The notes under the pieces were generated by a model. That model saw only the letters and a list, made by a program, of their open reading frames with translations. It did no database searches and was not told the origin of the DNA. The position numbers and the translations under genes were made by a program. A DNA stretch of 64,000 nt from Escherichia phage AV110: sequence record OR352940.1; one strand, 5' to 3'. Positions 98-37,568 of this stretch are shown here, one piece after another. The first letter of the stretch is position 1. Each line of letters starts with the position of its first letter.

Positions 98-997
98 TTA
101 TTCCTCGATTACGACATCTTCATATTTAGGTATATTATACGGCGAAGAAATTAAAGCATTAAAGTAGATGAACTCACCAAGACCTGGATGGAATACTTCT
201 TCAGGATTTTCGAAATATTGAATTTTCGGACGCCCTTTAAGAATTTGATAGTACTCTGTTTTAGTTGGTTTAAAAATTCGAATCAGCGCTTCTTCAGGAT
301 ACTTATTTCTGTCGAAGCTATTATTTGGATCGGTTATATAAAGCGGTTGGCCTAATTGAATTGCACATTCAACCACTTGTTCAAAACGATAGCACGGGTC
401 ACTAATTCGAAATGGATGAAAAATACCATCTAGATAAATAGGAGCCAAATCACCTACAAGACGCTGCATGATGGAAGGACGTATAACTTTCTGCGTTACG
501 ATAATCTTATTACCATCTGCACCTGCGTTAACCAGCACTTCTTTTTGACGTTCATTCAACACAGTAGTTTGAAGTGAACGATTAACCGACAACATATCAG
601 TTTTTAAGAATTCATCAATATAAAAACGTGGTTTATTAGGGTCTGCAGTGATATTGAAATTGAATTCCACATCAAAAGCGCCGTCATATCCAGTGATATC
701 TGTGATTAGAAAATCACAGTCATAATAAGCAATTAATGAATCAACCACAAATCCATTTTCAGACCAGAAATATTTACGAGTGTTATACGCGTTATCTTTA
801 TACCATAATGGAACAAACTTAAATTCTGGAAAAAGACGTTCGCATTCTTTAATATCAGATGCATTACGTGGATATGTAATCACATCACCCGGATTAGCAC
901 GGTGCAAATGAAGTTGGAAGTTGCCATCCTTAAGGATAGCATACTGTCCAGTTTCATAAGACCGCATACTCAAGATTGGTACGCGGAAAATAGCCAT
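98..997 (-). CDS. hypothetical protein (299 aa); positional candidate for the hmC-DNA glycosyltransferase (T4 beta-gt slot)
   Basis: Long minus-strand ORF next to gene 42 homologue; no motif recognised; function inferred from synteny only. Confidence 0.55.
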   Translation of the reverse strand: MAIFRVPILSMRSYETGQYAILKDGNFQLHLHRANPGDVITYPRNASDIKECERLFPEFKFVPLWYKDNAYNTRKYFWSENGFVVDSLIAYYDCDFLITDITGYDGAFDVEFNFNITADPNKPRFYIDEFLKTDMLSVNRSLQTTVLNERQKEVLVNAGADGNKIIVTQKVIRPSIMQRLVGDLAPIYLDGIFHPFRISDPCYRFEQVVECAIQLGQPLYITDPNNSFDRNKYPEEALIRIFKPTKTEYYQILKGRPKIQYFENPEEVFHPGLGEFIYFNALISSPYNIPKYEDVVIEE

Positions 998-1755: not shown

Positions 1756-1995
1756 TTATTTGAATTTCTTGACAATGTTGACATAACGTAAAGCTTCAGC
1801 ATCGATACTTCCAAGAACACTATGAAGAAATGCATCAGCGTAGTATTCCAATTGAACAGGTTCTTTAATCACTTTAGCCGCTTTAGTTTCAAACAGGCCC
1901 ATCAGGGCCTTTTTAAGAATTTGTTCATTAGTGTTCAGATTCATAGTCAAAATCTCTTCATTAAGTTGGTGGTTAAAAGTTTTTCTAGAAATCAT
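1756..1995 (-). CDS. hypothetical protein (79 aa)
   Basis: ORF in operon orientation; 4-nt overlap with next gene. Confidence 0.45.
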   Translation of the reverse strand: MISRKTFNHQLNEEILTMNLNTNEQILKKALMGLFETKAAKVIKEPVQLEYYADAFLHSVLGSIDAEALRYVNIVKKFK

Positions 1996-3152
1996 TCCGG
2001 GTACCTCAAAGCGTCATCAGAGTTAGTTATATCAATAATAGATATAGAGTTTTCTGCTAACCCGTTTTTAGATAATTGACGTTTATAATATCTTTCACAA
2101 TATGTACACGTCGTCCCGCAGATTTCATTAGCACAATCGAAATCTGGATGTCTGAACCACCTTTTTTCTAAAAAGCCATCTAACAAAGAGGTTTCAATAT
2201 TTACTGTATGTGAAAACTCAGTTTCGTTTTCAAGAGTGAAAATAGTCTCTAAAGGCTTCCACAGTTCTAACAAATTACCTTCAAACTTTTCAGAAGCGTA
2301 TGCTTCAAGAACTTTCAAAATGTAGTCTGTGCTACCTGTACGTCCTGAAACTTTGAATTGAGTGATACCAATATCATTATAAAGTTTCAAATCTTGAGGA
2401 CGAACAAAACGAGTTCTCAACCAGTTAAATGGGTCTGTATCACGAGCTTTAATACAGTGCTGCATAGGATATCCGTTTAAGGATTTAGCATCATCAGCTG
2501 TAACATCAGTACTATGGAAAATATAGCAAGAGTCACGATAGCTACAATGTGTTGTATACCCTTTACCAGCATTAGAACAGAACTCATTTACAAGAACTTC
2601 AAATATTATATTGTTCTTATTGCAAAACTCTGCTGCACGCTTCAGGAAAGAAACTGAACGGTTCTTATGAATTCCACAGCAGACCTTTTTGATATTATAT
2701 TGGTCATGCAAGTATTTGATTTGAGTTACAGCATCGACATGTAGAATTGTTGAAACTTCAATCTCAATGTCTTTATTGACTTCACGAACAATTTCCATAA
2801 CAACAGGGTTAGCGATAGTAATACGCCATACGCCTATTGACCAAAGATACTGAACATAATCCTGAATAGCTTTCTTCTTCCACTCAACTAGTTCTCTTTT
2901 TGAACCAGGATTTATCGTGTTGAGTGTATAGTTAAAGCAAATACCTAATTCGTTACAACGTTTAACGTAATCTTCTAACATCTTTTTGTCAACGTCAGGA
3001 AGCCTAAAATCAGGTCTGGCTGCTACAAAAGCCATTTCTCTTGTAGAGCCATATACTTCGTTTATCAAGCTATTAGGATAGGTTTTATTGAGCTCTACGA
3101 TTTTATCAAGAAGAGCTAAATCAAAATTTGTTCCGATTTTAAAAGTATTCAT
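1992..3152 (-). CDS. Cys-rich enzyme-like protein (386 aa) with C-terminal CxxxCxYC motif; function unknown
   Basis: Long ORF; C-terminal ...CANEICGTTCTYCERYY contains a CX3CX2C Fe-S-type motif with the aromatic residue typical of radical-SAM clusters, but at the C-terminus. Confidence 0.65.
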   Translation of the reverse strand: MNTFKIGTNFDLALLDKIVELNKTYPNSLINEVYGSTREMAFVAARPDFRLPDVDKKMLEDYVKRCNELGICFNYTLNTINPGSKRELVEWKKKAIQDYVQYLWSIGVWRITIANPVVMEIVREVNKDIEIEVSTILHVDAVTQIKYLHDQYNIKKVCCGIHKNRSVSFLKRAAEFCNKNNIIFEVLVNEFCSNAGKGYTTHCSYRDSCYIFHSTDVTADDAKSLNGYPMQHCIKARDTDPFNWLRTRFVRPQDLKLYNDIGITQFKVSGRTGSTDYILKVLEAYASEKFEGNLLELWKPLETIFTLENETEFSHTVNIETSLLDGFLEKRWFRHPDFDCANEICGTTCTYCERYYKRQLSKNGLAENSISIIDITNSDDALRYPE

Positions 3153-3211: not shown

Positions 3212-3613
3212 TTATAGATTCGGTTTATACGATTTAAATGTTTCGAATTCGCCTTTATTCATAAGAGCTTTGAATTCGTCAGGACGCATAGCTTTGTCGT
3301 CGATAATCCAATCATATACTGGTTTATGTGTTAGCAAATTATGGTACTTCAAGCCAATGTTTGCCAAGTTCTGAATCAGACTTGGGAGAATGTCAATTGC
3401 TATACGACCAGGACCTACTGACTTCATACCGCGAGCAGTGTAAAGCGTTATTGTATGCCCTGCATCATACAGAGCATTAATGGCAGACACCATTTCGACG
3501 TCCGGTTTGAAGTTCACATAATCACGATTGTTATTCCACTCTGTTATACAATCATCGACATCAAAACAAAGATTAAGCATGTTTTCTACACGGTGCATTA
3601 GATTCGTTCCCAT
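3212..3613 (-). CDS. small HAD-superfamily phosphatase-like protein (KdsC-like)
   Basis: 133 aa; motif FDVDDCIT matches HAD motif I (DxDx[T/V]). Confidence 0.6.
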   Translation of the reverse strand: MGTNLMHRVENMLNLCFDVDDCITEWNNNRDYVNFKPDVEMVSAINALYDAGHTITLYTARGMKSVGPGRIAIDILPSLIQNLANIGLKYHNLLTHKPVYDWIIDDKAMRPDEFKALMNKGEFETFKSYKPNL

Positions 3614-5283
3614 TGATGAGTGATATCGCCACCGATTGGACGATAAGAAACACCAGTTTCTTTATCAGTTAGTACCCATTTACCAGGATTTTTTGTAATC
3701 AGAGTAGCCGTTACAGGTTCTGCTACGTCATAACTAATAGAGCCGTCCTGAAGTACACGGCCCATGTTACGTAATTGCTTAGTCAGAAGTTCCATACCTT
3801 TATAATATGCGGCTACCGCTTTAAGTGGATTATTCTTGAAATAACCACCTAATGCAATCCAGATAATTGCTACAGCCAAATGATGATATTCATTAAACGA
3901 ACTCAGCTTTCCATATTTGTAAACTAATGGATTGATGTTAATAGTCACATTACAAGTTGTTTCATCAATAGTAAACTGTCCCCAGGTCGGATTAGCGTTG
4001 AATTCATCATAACCTGAAACAGCGTAAAGCACTTTAGCTTCGTCGTACAATTTCGGCCCGTAAATCTTGGTTTCGCCAAAATATCCACGAGGGTCGATAA
4101 ACTTGACTTCGCCGTTATCAGTAATCATAGTATTACTGAAGTTCGGGTCACCATGAATAACAGAGTACTGTCCCTGAGAACGGTTATGATAACGAATAAG
4201 GTGTTCTAAAGCTTGTTTCAGCATTGGCTTCAGACGTCCAATCTTAGTGTAGTTCACATGTGTGATTTTACCAAATGAATCAATCAATGGTTGAATGCTT
4301 TCACAACGATCAATAACTTTCGTATAGAATTCTTTAGTGAAATCACGACGAACAGTTTCAGGACTTACAAAATAAGTGTCTGCGCTGAATTTCAGTGCAT
4401 CTAAAATTGCATCAATAATTTGTGGACGAGCAAGACTTGATTTTGATTTAATATATTCAAATGCCGGCTTACCTTTAATGCGTTCCATTTCAAAGTTATT
4501 TTCATTAACAGAAACTAACTGAGGAACTGAATCTGATTTCACTTTCAAATACCACGAAATCTCATCTTTCTGAAGAGCTCGACCCTGTTCGGTTAATGCG
4601 AATTTAGTTACAGTTTCTTCGCCAATTTCAACTGCATTAAAACTACGGTTCAGTTCACGAACTTCATGGGCCTTTTCAAGTTTAGGCATATCACCAAGGT
4701 CGATGATATTCATAAGCTCTGATTTATTGAATGCGCCGCTGTAAAGGAATTCTACGAAATCACGTCCTTTGCAGTATTCATGAATTTCCTCATCGGTAGA
4801 ACCCATATAGAATTCCCAGTCTTTGAACTGATAAATTCCTACAACATTACCGCCTGTTTCACCTACATTAGTGATATTTTCACCATCGAAATTATACCGA
4901 CATTCATCACCCTTAACATAGATTGCGTTAACATTCCAAGACCAAGAACCAAAATCGGGAATAATATCACACCAGTTAACAATTACATTATGGCCGTCTA
5001 AATCTTTGTGTAATTTAGCAAGAGCATAAGCAGAACCATACGCTTCATCAACTGTACGAATAGTCACATTGAACCCTTCTTGCTCACAATAAGCTCGAAC
5101 AGTTTCAGCAAATTTTGAATGAACTACTACAATAATTTCATCTGCGCCAAGGTCAGAATAAATTGTATACAAATTGCTCAGAATAGTGTCTTGCTTATAG
5201 TTAACAAGCACCTTAGGAATATGATGCGTTATTGGATACAAACGAGTTGCCAGTCCAGCACCAAGAATAACAGCTTTTTTCAT
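3598..5283 (-). CDS. bifunctional sugar-1-phosphate nucleotidyltransferase / APH-ChoK-like kinase
   Basis: 561 aa; N-terminus MKKAVILGAGLATRLYPIT is the G-x-G-T-R-L NDP-sugar pyrophosphorylase signature; C-terminal half has HGDPNFSN...FIDPRGYFG (Brenner HGD kinase motif plus DFG-like). Confidence 0.8.
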   Translation of the reverse strand: MKKAVILGAGLATRLYPITHHIPKVLVNYKQDTILSNLYTIYSDLGADEIIVVVHSKFAETVRAYCEQEGFNVTIRTVDEAYGSAYALAKLHKDLDGHNVIVNWCDIIPDFGSWSWNVNAIYVKGDECRYNFDGENITNVGETGGNVVGIYQFKDWEFYMGSTDEEIHEYCKGRDFVEFLYSGAFNKSELMNIIDLGDMPKLEKAHEVRELNRSFNAVEIGEETVTKFALTEQGRALQKDEISWYLKVKSDSVPQLVSVNENNFEMERIKGKPAFEYIKSKSSLARPQIIDAILDALKFSADTYFVSPETVRRDFTKEFYTKVIDRCESIQPLIDSFGKITHVNYTKIGRLKPMLKQALEHLIRYHNRSQGQYSVIHGDPNFSNTMITDNGEVKFIDPRGYFGETKIYGPKLYDEAKVLYAVSGYDEFNANPTWGQFTIDETTCNVTININPLVYKYGKLSSFNEYHHLAVAIIWIALGGYFKNNPLKAVAAYYKGMELLTKQLRNMGRVLQDGSISYDVAEPVTATLITKNPGKWVLTDKETGVSYRPIGGDITHQWERI

Positions 5284-5324: not shown

Positions 5325-5468
5325 CTAGTTAAAGCATTCATACTTTGCCTGTAGACCAATCATAATCCATCCAATTACAAGTGTTGGAATCATTACCGGA
5401 GCCGTTAAGCTCCAGTAGATAGTCATGGCAAGCATCAATAGTAAAAGTCCTATTGTTATTGCTTTCAT
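5325..5468 (-). CDS. small hydrophobic membrane protein (47 aa), below ORF-track cutoff
   Basis: ATG overlaps stop of upstream SIS gene (ATGA); GAGG upstream; product MKAITIGLLLLMLAMTIYWSLTAPVMIPTLVIGWIMIGLQAKYECFN is a predicted TM peptide. Confidence 0.35.
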   Translation of the reverse strand: MKAITIGLLLLMLAMTIYWSLTAPVMIPTLVIGWIMIGLQAKYECFN

Positions 5469-6100
5469 TGTTCGCCTCGTAACATGGCACCTAGTGCACC
5501 ACCTGGATGGAACTTAAGGAAGTCATTAGAGGTAAATCCACGTTCAGACGAAAGGTTGATAGCGAACGTATCGATAAGCGCTAACAACAATGTAGTAGAC
5601 ATTGTCGGAGCTAAAGAGTTCTCGTCAACTTCTACCGCGATACCGGTACAGAACGTATAATCAAAAAGAGCTTCGTATTCTTGTGGAATGTCAGGGTTAC
5701 AATGTAACAGAATCTGTTTAACCTGAGGACGAATCATACGAAGATGTTTAGCAACACCTATCATTTCTTCAGTCTTACCAGAACGACTGATGTGAACTAA
5801 TACATCATTAGGTGCAATAAATCCTGCGTCACCATGAGAATAATGCCCAGTGTTCAAGTACATACTTGGGATACCGAGTGAAGCAAAAGTCTCGGAAGCT
5901 TTAGTTGCGATATTAGCGTTCTTACCAACACCTGTAATAATTACTCGGCTTTCATAATTACTAAGTCCCGGGCGTCGAAGAGTTTCTAGAATAGCATTAT
6001 AACGAGCAGGGTTTTGACTAATTACTTTAGCCATAGTGGCAAGAGATGAAGCTTGTTTTACGATTGCGTCAATAGCGATAGTGATTGGTGTAGTTTTCAT
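5465..6100 (-). CDS. SIS-domain sugar-phosphate isomerase, KdsD/GutQ (arabinose-5-phosphate isomerase)-like
   Basis: 211 aa; ITGVGKNANIATK and HYSHGDAGFI..ISRSGKTEE resemble KdsD SIS motifs; C-terminal FHPGGALG is KdsD-like; no CBS domains. Confidence 0.8.
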   Translation of the reverse strand: MKTTPITIAIDAIVKQASSLATMAKVISQNPARYNAILETLRRPGLSNYESRVIITGVGKNANIATKASETFASLGIPSMYLNTGHYSHGDAGFIAPNDVLVHISRSGKTEEMIGVAKHLRMIRPQVKQILLHCNPDIPQEYEALFDYTFCTGIAVEVDENSLAPTMSTTLLLALIDTFAINLSSERGFTSNDFLKFHPGGALGAMLRGEQ

Positions 6101-20471: not shown

Positions 20472-20942
20472 TTAATCATGTTTCCACACCCCATCGGTAT
20501 TTGACCAAAGTCGCTGGTTATCTGATCCTCGCCACAGTTTTTTGGTCGGAAGATTTTTCTCATACTTCCCATCAATAATAACATCAACATATTTAAGCAT
20601 TTCTAGTTGTTTAATATCTTCAAACTTATATCCTGTCCACAACCAAATGCTTTTATTTGGATAAAGATTTTTTACTGTTTGAACAATGCAATGAATAACA
20701 TCTCGGTTATCAGGATAGAGAGGGTCACCTCCGGTTATAGTCAATCCTTCTATATAATCATTATTCAAACATTCAATTAATTGTTCTAGTGTTTCGCCAG
20801 TGAATGGAATACCATTTCTAGCATTCCATGTTGATTTATTATAACACCCTTCACATTTATGCAAACAACCTGTAACGAAAAGAACGACCCTGCAACCAGG
20901 GCCATTCACAAAATCGCAAGGATAAAATCTATCATAATTCAT
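20472..20942 (-). CDS. nrdG: anaerobic ribonucleotide reductase activating protein NrdG (radical SAM)
   Basis: 156 aa; CLHKCEGC cluster motif; overlaps nrdD stop. Confidence 0.9.
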   Translation of the reverse strand: MNYDRFYPCDFVNGPGCRVVLFVTGCLHKCEGCYNKSTWNARNGIPFTGETLEQLIECLNNDYIEGLTITGGDPLYPDNRDVIHCIVQTVKNLYPNKSIWLWTGYKFEDIKQLEMLKYVDVIIDGKYEKNLPTKKLWRGSDNQRLWSNTDGVWKHD

Positions 20943-22756
20943 TGGTGTTTAACCCTATGCATGATTTCTTTATTTTTACCGAGATTAAATCCGCGTTCGT
21001 TCGGATTTCCCAAATAACCACAAGTTCTTCTTATTGTGTTCATCTTTTTAGGATCAGTTTCTCCGCAAACTGAACAAACAAATCCATTTTCAGTAGGAGT
21101 CATTTCATGAGTACTTCCGCATGTAAAACATTTATCTACTGGCATATTAACACCAAAATAATCTAAATGTTGTGCAGCATAATCCCATACAGCCTCAAGT
21201 CCCTTTAAATTGTTTTTCATATCTGGAAGTTCAACATAAGAAATGTGACCGCCTGTCGCAATGAAATGATACGGCGCTTCACGAGAAATCTTTTCAAACG
21301 GAGTAATATTTTCTTCTACTGAAACATGGAAACTATTAGTGTACCAGCCTTTATCTGTAACATCTTTTACACTTCCATATTTTTCTGTGTCGAGTTTACA
21401 AAAGCGATAACAAAGGTTTTCAGCAGGAGTAGAATATAAACTAAAAGCAAATCCGGTTCTTTCAGTCCACTGTTTAAGATGAGCATTCATTTTAGTTAAA
21501 ATTTCTTGTCCAATATCACGACCGACAAGAATATTCAATTCGTGAATACCAATGTATCCCAAAGACACTGAACTTCTACCGTTTTTAAATAACTCAATTA
21601 TATCGTCATCAGGTTTAAGACGAACCCCAAATGCACCTTCTTGGTAAAGAATAGGAGCAACAGTCGCTTTAACTCCTTTTAAGGAACTAATTCTACACAT
21701 CAAAGCTTCAAAACACAGGTCCATTCGTTCGTTAAATAGCTCAACAAATTTCTGTTCATTGAACTGTGTTCCAATATAAGAATCTAACGCAATACGAGGA
21801 AGATTCAGTGTTACAACACCAAGATTATTACGTCCATCAAGAATTTCATTACCAGTCGAATCTTTCCATACGCTCAAGAAACTACGGCAACCCATCGGAG
21901 AAACAGGAACTGAAGAACCGGTAATAGCTTTATTATTCTTAACCGAAATAATGTCAGGATACATTCTTTTGCTTGCACATTCTAACGCAAGTTGTTTAAT
22001 ATCATAGTTCGGATCGTCTTTATAAAGATTAACACCTTCTTCAACGAACATAACAAGCTTAGGGAAAATAGGAGTTATTCCATCACGACCAAGACCTTTA
22101 ATGCGGTTTTTAAGAATTGCCTTCTGAATCATTCGTTCAGTCCAATCGGTTCCCGTACCAAATGTAATTGTTACAAAAGGAGTTTGTCCGTTTGAACTAA
22201 AGAGAGTATTTACTTCATATTCATAAGCTTGGAATGCGTCATAGACATCTTTTTCTGTTTTAGATTGAGCATAATTCAGAATGTCTGGTATTTGCCATTT
22301 TTCTGCATCTTCAACATGTTTAGCGTATGTACGTTTAACATAAGGAGAAAGAACTTTATCGACATTCGCAAATGTAGTTCCGCCATACTGATGTGAAGCA
22401 ACCTGTGCAGTAATTTGTGCCATAATTGCAGTAGCAACGCCAATAGATTTAGGCGTTTCAATTTGAGCATTGCCTAATTTAAATCCATTCTCAAGCATCC
22501 CCTTTAAATCGACTAAACAGCAATTGGTAAACGGAAGAGCAGGAGAATAATCAATATCATGCATGTGAATGATTCCGCTTTCATGCGCATTCATAATAAA
22601 AGACGGGACCATATTTTTGGCAATGTGCTTAGACACAATACCAGCCATAAGGTCCCGTTGAGTTGGAAAAACACGAGAATCTTTATTAGCATTCTCGTTT
22701 AAAAGGTCTTTATTAGTTTTATGAATTAATCCTTCAATTTCTTTTTCAATTTTCAT
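20939..22756 (-). CDS. nrdD: anaerobic (class III) ribonucleotide reductase NrdD
   Basis: 605 aa, uninterrupted (no intron); C-terminal Zn-ribbon CxxC..CxxC and glycyl-radical motif RRTCGYLG. Confidence 0.95.
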   Translation of the reverse strand: MKIEKEIEGLIHKTNKDLLNENANKDSRVFPTQRDLMAGIVSKHIAKNMVPSFIMNAHESGIIHMHDIDYSPALPFTNCCLVDLKGMLENGFKLGNAQIETPKSIGVATAIMAQITAQVASHQYGGTTFANVDKVLSPYVKRTYAKHVEDAEKWQIPDILNYAQSKTEKDVYDAFQAYEYEVNTLFSSNGQTPFVTITFGTGTDWTERMIQKAILKNRIKGLGRDGITPIFPKLVMFVEEGVNLYKDDPNYDIKQLALECASKRMYPDIISVKNNKAITGSSVPVSPMGCRSFLSVWKDSTGNEILDGRNNLGVVTLNLPRIALDSYIGTQFNEQKFVELFNERMDLCFEALMCRISSLKGVKATVAPILYQEGAFGVRLKPDDDIIELFKNGRSSVSLGYIGIHELNILVGRDIGQEILTKMNAHLKQWTERTGFAFSLYSTPAENLCYRFCKLDTEKYGSVKDVTDKGWYTNSFHVSVEENITPFEKISREAPYHFIATGGHISYVELPDMKNNLKGLEAVWDYAAQHLDYFGVNMPVDKCFTCGSTHEMTPTENGFVCSVCGETDPKKMNTIRRTCGYLGNPNERGFNLGKNKEIMHRVKHQ

Positions 22757-37206: not shown

Positions 37207-37568
37207 TATAGACTCTCAGTAAAGGTACGAGCGATAACGTCGCGCTGCTGTTCTGGAGTCAGAGAGTTAAAGCGAACTGCATAACCGGATACACGAATGG
37301 TCAGCTGAGGATATTTTTCCGGATGCTTAACTGCATCTTCCAGAGTTTCACGACGCAGAACGTTAACGTTCAGGTGTTGACCACCTTCAATTTTAACTTT
37401 AGGTTGATGTTCAATTTCAATTTCACGGGCATTCAAACCGTAGAAAATTTCCGGGTCTACAATAGCGTCTTCTTTAAAAGTCTTAGAGACAATAATCCGG
37501 GCCTGAGTACCGTCTTCAAAATAAATAGTGCCTTTATGCGCACCTTCAAGAATTTGATATGCTTTCAT
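37206..37568 (-). CDS. autonomous glycyl-radical cofactor GrcA/YfiD-like protein
   Basis: 120 aa; C-terminus ...[33 protein letters not shown] carries the glycyl-radical signature RVSGYAV; resembles E. coli GrcA as recalled. Confidence 0.8.

Follow-up and report, generated by a model that had tools for sequence, protein, structure and literature searches.

A peptidase-U32 family protein of an RB69-like phage is a candidate oxygen-independent, prephenate-dependent dCMP 5-hydroxylase

The product of the gene at 1992..3152 of the Escherichia phage AV110 sequence belongs, as a divergent member, to the peptidase-U32 family, which comprises iron-sulfur enzymes with a TIM barrel. Sequence comparison and gene context suggest that this protein is an O2-independent, prephenate-dependent dCMP 5-hydroxylase, a reading to which we assign a probability of roughly 0.58. 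O2-independent hydroxylation with an oxygen atom taken from prephenate is the activity of the family members RlhA, TrhP and UbiU/UbiV. By this reading, the U32 protein would hydroxylate dCMP at C5 without O2, and the resulting 5-hydroxy-dCMP would be the precursor of the arabinosyl-5-hydroxycytosine DNA of the phage; the protein would thus be the anaerobic twin of a ThyA-like FMN/O2 synthase whose gene lies two positions away. Possible substrates are dCMP, dCTP, DNA and RNA; relative to dCMP, another cytosine deoxynucleotide or cytosine in DNA is considered less likely. The stretch analysed (64,000 nucleotides of record OR352940.1, hereafter the window) belongs to an RB69-like Mosigvirus, a group whose DNA contains arabosylated 5-hydroxycytosine (5hoC), and the following features are relevant to the argument:

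98..997, minus strand: DNA arabinosyltransferase 1, acceptor the 5-OH group; PHROG 3891, RB69 gp46:47 family (Lee et al. 2026, Table 1, PMC13326640)
997..1713, minus strand: ThyA-like 5-hydroxy-dCMP synthase (FMN- and O2-dependent), 235/238 (99%) identity to RB69 gp48; two genes from the U32 gene
1756..1995, minus strand: orf79 (RB69 ORF049c), a short gene whose translation is coupled to that of U32 through an ATGA overlap
1992..3152, minus strand: U32 gene
2097..2135, minus strand: codons of the C-terminal four-cysteine knuckle, C340-x4-C345-x3-C349-x2-C352, the motif flagged in the original prediction
2454..2579, minus strand: codons of the predicted U32-type [4Fe-4S] site (C192, C203, C209 and C233, with H213), from alignment and conservation
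3212..3613, minus strand: HAD phosphatase (AfhF-like), NDP-arabinose synthesis
3598..5283, minus strand: bifunctional sugar kinase/nucleotidyltransferase (AfhE-like)
5465..6100, minus strand: arabinose-5-phosphate isomerase (SIS domain)
20472..20942: NrdG, a radical-SAM enzyme

The open reading frame encodes exactly 386 amino acids, as originally predicted, and its product is the ortholog of RB69 gp50 (RB69p050). Residues 94-286 match the Pfam family Peptidase_U32 (PF01136) at 42.2 bits, against a gathering score of 22.4, and hhalign comparison of the phage family with an alignment in which TrhP, RlhA, UbiU and UbiV were combined with four remote U32 proteins of viral origin returned a probability of 99.1% (E 8e-19). 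No useful hit came from searching PDB sequences with the protein, its family profile or TrhP; fold comparison of the predicted structure, on the other hand, revealed a TIM barrel, as in the solved U32 protein Mk0906 (PDB 5D88), a 247 aa protein of no assigned function that matches at 11-14% identity and is devoid of the C-terminal extension. The notion of a glycosyltransferase of unusual fold, put forward in the original prediction, is contradicted by this barrel and by the lack of any match to a glycosyltransferase profile, the glycosyltransferase of the cluster being the neighbour at 98..997. The other suggestion, an Fe-S enzyme that modifies either sugar or base, was broadly right in that characterised peptidase-U32 members are [4Fe-4S] proteins (Pelosi 2019), while the context points to the base. 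Within the family, the phage proteins form a separate subfamily of 454 clusters (E<=1e-30), for whose HMM TrhP is the best-scoring E. coli U32 protein. The NCBIfam TrhP and UbiU models score far under their cutoffs (UbiU 18.5 bits on the phage protein, cutoff 440), with no match to the phage protein from the TrhP and RlhA models. Neither of the accessory domains Peptidase_U32_C and DUF3656 was matched in the phage protein, which argues that it is not a TrhP, RlhA or UbiU equivalog.

The cysteines of the barrel indicate how a cluster might be bound. The original prediction regarded the C-terminal cysteines as the only cluster; however, the protein contains 13 cysteines, and a second set (C192, C203, C209 and C233, together with C158 and H213) is equally invariant. 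C192 aligns with C169 of RlhA, C170 of TrhP and C169 of UbiU, C209 with C176 of RlhA, C177 of TrhP and C180 of UbiV, and C233 with C197 of TrhP. In the canonical U32 pattern CX6CX15CX3/4C, these three residues occupy positions 1, 2 and 4, and position 3 is Gly227. The invariant extra cysteine, C203, sits in a family-specific 10-residue hairpin (β-hairpin 193-202) that places C192 and C203 together, and it probably substitutes for the third canonical cysteine. C192, C203 and C233 are kept in at least 130 of 131 aligned cluster representatives; at position 209, 76 of these have Cys and 54 have His. Furthermore, the mutagenesis-essential RlhA residues E161, C169 and C176 correspond to E185, C192 and C209 of the phage protein, and 90% or more of the close family retain E185.

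The gene had originally been placed in an hmC-sugar module, a view that does not hold, since the adjacent ThyA-like protein is nearly identical to RB69 gp48, a 5-hydroxy-dCMP maker, and the sugars are on 5-hydroxycytosine, not hydroxymethylcytosine. RB69 gp48 binds FMN and makes 5-hydroxy-dCMP with O2, for which 18O2 labelling was used (Lee et al. 2026, PMC13326640), and the same report lists the RB69 U32 gene as a "sugar or heterocycle reductase". The part of the literature covered by our search contains no paper linking U32 or chorismate mutase to phage 5hoC, and a transposon study of LC53 and Bas46 reports nothing on these genes. Remote homologs of DNA arabinosyltransferase 1 adjoin U32 genes in unrelated phages. 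A module composed of a MazG-like dNTPase, a Tmk-like kinase, a glycosyltransferase and U32 also recurs without sugar-activation genes, an organisation of T4-like logic in which U32 holds the place of the base-modifying enzyme. Genes for anaerobic dNTP synthesis are also found in the window: NrdD, NrdG and a GrcA-like protein.

A connection to prephenate is suggested by the gene adjoining U32: three phage architectures that are unrelated to one another have there either a chorismate mutase or a DAHP synthase fused to one. Chorismate mutase makes prephenate. In Straboviridae the order is U32-(orf79)-chorismate mutase-ThyA-like, in jumbo-phage contigs U32-chorismate mutase-GT-AfhE, and in other contigs GT-SIS-AfhE-[DAHP synthase fused to chorismate mutase]-U32; even in the rearranged Thanatos cluster, U32 and chorismate mutase are still adjacent. 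The Straboviridae gene of Entb_45 matches Pfam CM_2 (2.4e-10), its homologs occur in 51 phage records plus Proteus phages, and the active-site residues R11, R28, K39, E52, S84 and Q88 are retained. Chorismate mutase is present in 12 of 20 U32-positive loci versus 0 of 15 U32-negative loci, counts that ignore phylogeny. Prephenate is needed both by RlhA, which makes 5-hydroxycytidine, and by TrhP, which makes 5-hydroxyuridine, and a chorismate-mutase domain alone is enough to supply it to these two enzymes. The DAHP-synthase-family neighbour was also considered as a KDO-8-P synthase, which would imply a sugar role, and this was rejected on scores of 237 bits for DAHPS versus 63 bits for KDO8PS and on the fused chorismate-mutase domain of several copies.

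A phage-encoded chorismate mutase adjoins U32 in most related phages; the window contains none, nor is one detectable beside U32 in Mosigvirus and in the Marfa/Clarke-like Klebsiella phages. This absence counts against the prephenate-hydroxylase reading for the phage studied here, in which prephenate would have to be host-made, by PheA and TyrA. The small gene orf79 occurs only beside U32, near the slot where related phages have chorismate mutase. Its interpretation as a diverged chorismate mutase was dismissed: the hhalign probability is 0.2%, PM2, TG1 and fHe-Yen9-01 have orf79 alongside a genuine chorismate mutase, and its AF2 model is of low confidence with helix lengths unlike AroQ.

The U32 gene and the ThyA-like gene are complementary in their distribution. 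All 35 informative loci anchored on a 5hoC-type glycosyltransferase contain a ThyA-like gene, a U32 gene or both (both in 15, ThyA-like only in 15, U32 only in 5, neither in 0). Outside the Straboviridae, 22 of 23 U32 loci with such a glycosyltransferase have no ThyA-like gene within ±10 kb. Matches to the U32 gene in anaerobe genomes (Romboutsia, Oscillospiraceae, Erysipelotrichales, Tannerella and Phocaeicola) are likewise all without a ThyA-like gene in ±10 kb, although the host-lifestyle association, like that with chorismate mutase, consists of raw counts in which phylogeny is ignored, and it is uncertain to which MAGs the phage contigs belong. Phages of Acinetobacter, a strict aerobe, have nothing in the U32/chorismate-mutase slot. 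The Dhakaviruses, which have E. coli hosts, possess the ThyA-like gene and lack U32, implying that not every phage of enteric hosts needs U32.

The same neighbourhoods could be taken to mean that the protein tailors the sugar, as a reductase, epimerase or ring-form isomerase acting on arabinose-5-phosphate or NDP-arabinose. Indeed, the Straboviridae gene lies between the HAD phosphatase and the base genes, U32 follows SIS and AfhE-like genes in many metagenomic loci, and an epimerase-like gene adjoins it in some. We nevertheless regard this as unlikely, as the same sugar genes are found in Acinetobacter phages and in Dhakaviruses, which have no U32, and U32 occurs in the MazG-Tmk-GT-U32 modules and in bacterial nucleotide-kinase/nucleotidase operons that have no sugar-activation genes. 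A role on the sugar would also leave the adjacent chorismate mutase, or its fusion to DAHP synthase, unexplained, and we know of no U32 enzyme that acts on a sugar. Finally, DLP3 makes arabinosyl-5hoC without U32, and UDP-arabinose synthesis has been attributed to the isomerase, AfhE and AfhF (summarised in Lee et al. 2026, PMC13326640).

Since the known U32 pyrimidine hydroxylases act only on RNA and T4-like phages encode tRNAs, the protein might instead resemble TrhP or RlhA in function and form ho5U or ho5C in tRNA or rRNA of the phage or its host, thereby tuning translation in infection. This is improbable in view of the missing RNA-binding C-terminal domains of TrhP and RlhA, the distribution of U32, which complements that of the ThyA-like dCMP hydroxylase, and its constant company of DNA-modification genes (GT, Tmk-like kinase, dNTPase and dCMP deaminase) across very different phages.

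RlhA (YdcP), the 23S rRNA 5-hydroxycytidine C2501 synthase, is among the closest known systems for the proposed dCMP 5-hydroxylase. RlhA and the phage protein share the superfamily and the TIM-barrel domain, RlhA modifies C5 of cytosine, the same atom and base as proposed here, and it depends on prephenate and on Fe-S cluster biogenesis. In contrast, RlhA is a 653 aa protein with a DUF3656 domain that binds 50S precursors, while the phage protein has 386 aa and no such domain; the similarity is seen by profile methods only, the third canonical cysteine is missing from the phage protein and the 10-residue hairpin with C203 is inserted, and rRNA is replaced by a proposed deoxynucleotide substrate.

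The C-terminal motif was correctly located in the original prediction: the CxxxCxYC string is present as DFDC340ANEIC345GTTC349TYC352, in which C345-x3-C349-x-Y-C352 has the radical-SAM spacing and aromatic residue. It is, however, a four-cysteine rather than a three-cysteine unit, C-x4-C-x3-C-x2-C. C340, C345, C349 and C352 are all invariant in 121 homologs with identities down to 46%, and the corresponding positions are Cys in 122-124 of the 131 aligned representatives, so the motif is under selection. By chance, about 0.014 CX3CXYC-type motifs are expected at the cysteine content of the protein. The C-terminal 92 aa have no Pfam match at E<=10, so that no known Fe-S or zinc domain was identified. 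RlhA likewise has extra cysteines in its C-terminal region, C580 and C611, which are essential (Kimura 2017), and given this precedent the knuckle probably constitutes a second Fe-S (or metal) site, as predicted from sequence conservation.

The segment C345GTTC349TYC352 has the radical-SAM CX3CX2C arrangement with the aromatic residue directly before the last cysteine, it is invariant in the close family, and position 351 is often aromatic or His among the 131 representatives. One might therefore envisage a non-canonical radical-SAM enzyme in which this triad binds SAM for radical chemistry on the base or the sugar. ThiC, in which a TIM barrel is combined with a C-terminal cluster, provides a precedent. 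We consider such an enzyme very improbable, and the original description of the motif as radical-SAM-style is not supported beyond the string that it has in common with that superfamily (e.g. NrdG). The invariant fourth cysteine, C340, would complete the ligation of a cluster, and the motif follows a complete U32 barrel instead of the first strand. The knuckle spacing differs among relatives (3-2-2, 4-3-2, 3-3-2 and 4-2-2), meaning that the CX3CXYC triad is not conserved as such. No match to Radical_SAM (PF04055) was obtained with the whole protein or with the C-terminal 92 aa, even at E<=10 on the fragment, whereas NrdG, the true radical-SAM enzyme of the window, is readily detected. Structure prediction and fold search, recommended with the original prediction, returned the TIM barrel and no radical-SAM structure among the top 50-60 matches. 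That the protein is a genuine protease of the collagenase-like PrtC kind is hardly credible, despite the names "peptidase" and "collagenase-like protease" on most records and reports of collagenolytic U32 proteins, given two invariant cysteine clusters typical of Fe-S enzymes, a nucleotide/DNA-modification context in every lineage, the linkage to chorismate mutase, no evident secretion signal and no known catalytic mechanism for U32 proteolysis.

For the dCMP 5-hydroxylase, a scheme may be drawn by analogy with that of Ferizhendi et al. 2024. A two-electron oxidation of the pyrimidine ring would come first, the electrons passing from the U32 [4Fe-4S] cluster (C192, C203, C209 and C233) to the C-terminal four-cysteine site (C340, C345, C349 and C352). 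Prephenate would then be decarboxylated, delivering hydroxide to C5 and leaving phenylpyruvate, after which the product would be phosphorylated, incorporated into DNA and arabinosylated. Hydroxylation in vitro has been shown for no U32 enzyme so far.

The proposed pairing of an O2-dependent with an O2-independent enzyme would parallel TrhP/TrhO, UbiUV/UbiIHF and the phage's own NrdDG/NrdAB. TrhP (YegQ) and TrhO set the precedent of one organism obtaining one product, tRNA ho5U34, by a U32/prephenate route and a separate O2 route; aerobes keep only the O2-dependent route and anaerobes only U32. Unlike the phage protein, TrhP has a Peptidase_U32_C domain and a tRNA uridine substrate, and its O2-dependent partner is a rhodanese (TrhO) rather than a ThyA-like flavoenzyme. 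UbiU and UbiV, which under anaerobiosis take the part of flavin monooxygenases, each use four cysteines to bind a [4Fe-4S] cluster, and their oxygen donor is prephenate, as determined by 18O-shikimate labelling; they differ from the phage protein in forming a heterodimer, in their lipid substrate, in the accessory factor UbiT and in having no C-terminal four-cysteine knuckle. RB69 gp48 and DLP3 gp80, whose product and pathway are those proposed for the U32 protein, have an unrelated fold and cofactor and require O2.

The tested 5-hydroxy-dCMP synthase needs O2, yet these phages prey on gut enterobacteria and have anaerobic ribonucleotide reductase genes; a prephenate-dependent U32 hydroxylase, if confirmed, would explain DNA hypermodification without oxygen. 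We tentatively extend this, at somewhat below even odds, to the proposal that U32 and chorismate mutase (or its DAHP-synthase fusion) form a self-contained viral module for O2-free C5 hydroxylation of pyrimidine deoxynucleotides with prephenate. A large number of uncultivated phages that infect obligate anaerobes would depend on this module as their only hydroxylase for O-glycosylated 5-hydroxypyrimidine DNA, the RB69-like phages would retain two routes, with and without O2, to cope with the gut oxygen gradient, and the C-terminal four cysteines would hold a second cluster that removes two electrons. If so, this would be the first use of prephenate-donor hydroxylation for DNA, and the first in a virus; it would add DNA precursors to the RNA and quinones on which the newly recognised "organic oxygen donor" chemistry acts, and would give a reason for chorismate mutase and DAHP synthase genes in phages. 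A soluble, single-subunit U32 enzyme with a small substrate might also offer the in vitro system that the U32 field still needs. Furthermore, phage resistance to restriction and CRISPR would be predicted to vary with oxygen, which is relevant to the choice of phages for gut therapy.

With regard to expression signals, a leader hairpin 5' of the U32 start codon is no better than shuffled sequence (z -0.18), and promoter and terminator scans gave background scores. The gene itself is under purifying selection, with 180 synonymous versus 55 nonsynonymous codon differences relative to Klebsiella phage F48.

Over its first 6.2 kb the window shares 98-99% identity with RB69-like Mosigviruses. Along the minus strand, DNA polymerase is followed by arabinose-5-P isomerase, a bifunctional kinase/nucleotidyltransferase, HAD phosphatase, the gene under study, an ORF of 79 aa, a ThyA-like gene, the PHROG 3891 glycosyltransferase and a Tmk-like kinase. 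The gene under study and its small neighbour are:

1992..3152, minus strand, U32-family gene, 386 aa
1756..1995, minus strand, orf79 (RB69 ORF049c), its start inside the U32 stop codon (ATGA)

The original prediction placed the first of these in an hmC-sugar module, the older published view of the RB69-like cluster (Thomas 2018). This view has been superseded: the arabinose of RB69 DNA is attached to 5-hydroxycytosine, and RB69 gp48, a ThyA-like, FMN-binding protein that takes its oxygen from 18O2, produces 5-hydroxy-dCMP (Lee et al. 2026, PMC13326640). The ThyA-like protein of the window is identical to gp48 at 235 of 238 positions. The U32 gene is RB69 gp50, which that study carries only as a table entry ("sugar or heterocycle reductase", fold match 5D88), with neither an experiment nor an assigned place in the pathway. 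We favour, at a probability of roughly 0.58, the reading that gp50 is an O2-independent, prephenate-dependent 5-hydroxylase of dCMP (or of cytosine in another form), an anaerobic duplicate of the O2-dependent synthase next door. The analysis establishes the family, the fold and the conserved residues of the protein and the linkage and distribution of its gene; metal content, substrate, use of prephenate and an oxygen-based division of labour are inferred. The ORF is already well known; a literature search, its coverage ending short of He et al. 2026 and Mahler et al. 2025, found no proposal of this role. The proposed role turns an open question into a concrete one that experiments can address directly.

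Shigella phage JK45 (NC_054940.1), filed as Tequatrovirus in its own record, shares 98.6% identity with the window across 6.2 kb and has the Mosigvirus-type 5-hydroxycytosine cluster. In that record the ThyA-like gene is labelled "dCMP hydroxymethylase", whereas "thymidylate synthase" is the name in many related records; each label is probably out of date.

In metagenomic phages with a ~50% identical U32 protein, the gene lies inside the replication and nucleotide module, near dCMP deaminase, a Tmk-like kinase, MazG- or dUTPase-like genes, UDG and Pol III alpha; in several such loci the gene immediately upstream encodes a remote homolog of the arabinosyltransferase in the window. The recurrent module (MazG-like, Tmk-like, glycosyltransferase, U32, Pol III alpha) contains no sugar-activation genes and, by analogy with the T4 scheme of dCTPase, base-modifying enzyme, dNMP kinase and glycosyltransferase, U32 would fill the base-modifying slot. 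Set beside a module of this composition, tailoring of the sugar, a role that would also suit the neighbours in the window, appears unlikely. Furthermore, a ThyA-like gene is missing within 10 kb at 22 of the 23 non-Straboviridae U32 loci with a 5-hydroxycytosine-type glycosyltransferase. Within a glycosyltransferase-anchored set of 36 loci (including one truncated contig), 15 carry both ThyA-like and U32 genes, 15 the ThyA-like gene only and five U32 only, and every informative locus has at least one of the two. Such an either/or/both pattern would be expected if two analogous enzymes fed one acceptor.

An operon of GP88, a nucleotide-kinase-methyltransferase, an unknown gene and U32 occurs on the Phocaeicola faecalis chromosome and on Bacillota contigs, and radical-SAM/SPASM genes recur within 10 kb of U32-family genes at several non-Straboviridae phage and bacterial loci:

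L120:3044-7137 and L009:7135-17428, P. faecalis and Bacillota operon: GP88, guanylate-kinase/SAM-methyltransferase, ~265-aa protein, U32
L008:1314-2249, L009:14160-15185, L016:5972-7000, and loci L112, L114 and L117: radical-SAM/SPASM gene near U32

The Bacillota operon further holds a 5'-nucleotidase, a PnuC-like transporter, a deoxynucleoside kinase, a radical-SAM/SPASM gene, a second paralog of U32 and a nucleoside deoxyribosyltransferase. The operon resembles a pathway for hydroxylation and O-methylation of nucleosides or nucleotides; its chemistry is again at the nucleotide level, and one of its enzymes could target a new hydroxyl group. The radical-SAM/SPASM neighbour could be a maturase or belong to a separate pathway.

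Characterized U32 proteins provide the model for the proposed chemistry. UbiU and UbiV each hold one [4Fe-4S] cluster through four Cys ligands (Pelosi 2019); they hydroxylate without O2, with prephenate as the oxygen donor, and for its supply the PheA chorismate-mutase domain is enough (Ferizhendi 2024). The 5-hydroxycytidine of 23S rRNA requires RlhA, which depends on prephenate, on Fe-S biogenesis, on C169 and C176 of the U32 motif and on the C-terminal C580 and C611 (Kimura 2017), and tRNA ho5U arises by a prephenate route through TrhP and a parallel O2-dependent route through TrhO (Sakai 2019). Hydroxylation of RNA, as by RlhA and TrhP, is an improbable role for a phage gene found in nucleotide modules. 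In alignment, RlhA C169, C176 and E161 correspond to C192, C209 and E185 of the phage protein, and TrhP C197 to C233, whereas the canonical third U32 Cys is Gly227. C203 ends a family-specific 10-residue β-hairpin that begins directly after C192. Among 130 full-length sequences representing the wider subfamily, C192, C203 and C233 are essentially invariant and residue 209 is Cys in 76 and His in 54, the pattern to be expected of four ligands to one cluster. The subfamily, though small, is a distinct one (454 clusters at E<=1e-30 in a set of 1.84 billion representatives), and the protein is strongly conserved, with 180 synonymous and 55 nonsynonymous codon differences from a Klebsiella phage copy. 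The RB69 ortholog RB69p050 (L018:4492-5661) is annotated in RefSeq with 389 aa, its N-terminus three codons longer than our first-start ORF, and the 386-aa start is provisional.

Both the 386-aa ORF and its CX3CXYC string (C345-GTT-C349-TY-C352, with C340 upstream) are present as first described. The claim that this is the only cysteine cluster fails: the protein has 13 cysteines, and two sets (C158, C192, C203, C209 and C233 with H213; C340, C345, C349 and C352) are invariant across 121 homologs whose identity goes down to 46%. Chance alone would give about 0.014 CX3CX2C strings at this composition; it is its conservation, rather than the string as such, that shows the motif to be important. 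Cys occupies the four C-terminal columns in 122-124 of the 131 representatives, with spacings of 3-2-2 (28), 4-3-2 (27), 3-3-2 (25) and 4-2-2 (22); a paralog at 22% identity has CX5CX3CX2C, and distant viral U32 proteins carry CX3CX2CX2C. Since the spacing varies, the conserved unit is a compact four-Cys knuckle and not the radical-SAM-style triad proposed originally, and a non-canonical radical-SAM enzyme is very unlikely. No Pfam domain matched the C-terminal segment. The knuckle is a predicted second Fe-S (or metal) site. It would have its counterpart in the C-terminal cysteines on which RlhA depends, and it might relay electrons. The "peptidase" in the U32 name is a misnomer, and a protease hardly merits consideration. 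A more distant viral U32 group on IMG/VR contigs (L071-L074; ~25% identity) also ends in CX3CX2CX2C; no panel genes were found near it, and it may have a separate function.

The prephenate dependence of the favoured hydroxylase is suggested by gene linkage. In Enterobacter phage Entb_45, the U32 stop codon is overlapped by a gene with a chorismate-mutase annotation (Pfam CM_2, 2.4e-10), homologs of which are present in 51 phage records, every time beside U32 and ThyA-like genes; Proteus phages have a more divergent copy. Of the eight active-site residues of E. coli chorismate mutase, these phage proteins retain six. Rearrangement of the cluster in Shewanella phage Thanatos has left U32 and chorismate mutase an overlapping pair. 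An IMG/VR scan (52 U32 loci) found chorismate mutase in 13 of 15 Straboviridae loci, a stand-alone copy directly after U32 on six jumbo-phage contigs, and a fusion on five others:

L048, L050, L051, L052 and L062, viral contigs: DAHP synthase-chorismate mutase fusion next to U32, a shikimate-pathway auxiliary gene

Hence, a prephenate-pathway gene adjoins U32 in three unrelated architectures. At L011 and L037, DAHP synthase has no detected chorismate-mutase domain; a further copy was rejected as KDO-8-P synthase (237 bits to DAHP synthase versus 63). In the glycosyltransferase-anchored set, chorismate mutase tracks U32, with 12 of 20 U32 loci against none of 15 ThyA-like-only loci (Fisher p 1.8e-4, uncorrected for relatedness). 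The window itself lacks chorismate mutase, and host PheA and TyrA would have to be its prephenate source. Orf79 is not a chorismate mutase and in some genera coexists with one; it occurs only beside Straboviridae U32 genes (Mosigvirus, PM2, TG1, fHe-Yen9-01), its AF2 model has three helices at low confidence, and an accessory role to U32 is possible. In the Marfavirus-like clusters of Klebsiella phages F48 and Clarke_MM3, a SIS-type arabinose-5-P isomerase is missing from the stretch between DNA polymerase and the AfhE-like (sugar kinase/nucleotidyltransferase) gene; Clarke_MM3 and Marfa keep U32 and lack chorismate mutase.

The aerobic synthase gp48 needs O2 (Lee et al. 2026, PMC13326640), and elsewhere the window encodes:

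20472..20942, minus strand, NrdG (radical-SAM activase)
20939..22756, minus strand, NrdD (anaerobic ribonucleotide reductase, intact)
37209..37568, minus strand, GrcA-like protein, a glycyl-radical spare part

The phage is therefore equipped to replicate without oxygen, and gp48 and gp50 would divide their labour according to oxygen. In JK45, nrdD is interrupted by a homing endonuclease. The U32 gene is present in 221 cultured-phage records, whose hosts are all Enterobacterales or Shewanella with no Acinetobacter phage among them, whereas 57 of the 345 records with the ThyA-like gene are Acinetobacter phages; in one, Apostate, the cluster is collinear and the U32/chorismate-mutase slot empty. 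As a counter-example, E. coli Dhakaviruses carry the ThyA-like gene without U32, which is therefore accessory and non-essential for modification as such. U32 has ten hits among GTDB genomes (Romboutsia, Oscillospiraceae, Erysipelotrichales, Tannerella, Phocaeicola and a few uncultured lineages); a nearby ThyA-like gene is missing in every case, and in Romboutsia the arrangement is U32-chorismate mutase-glycosyltransferase-AfhE.
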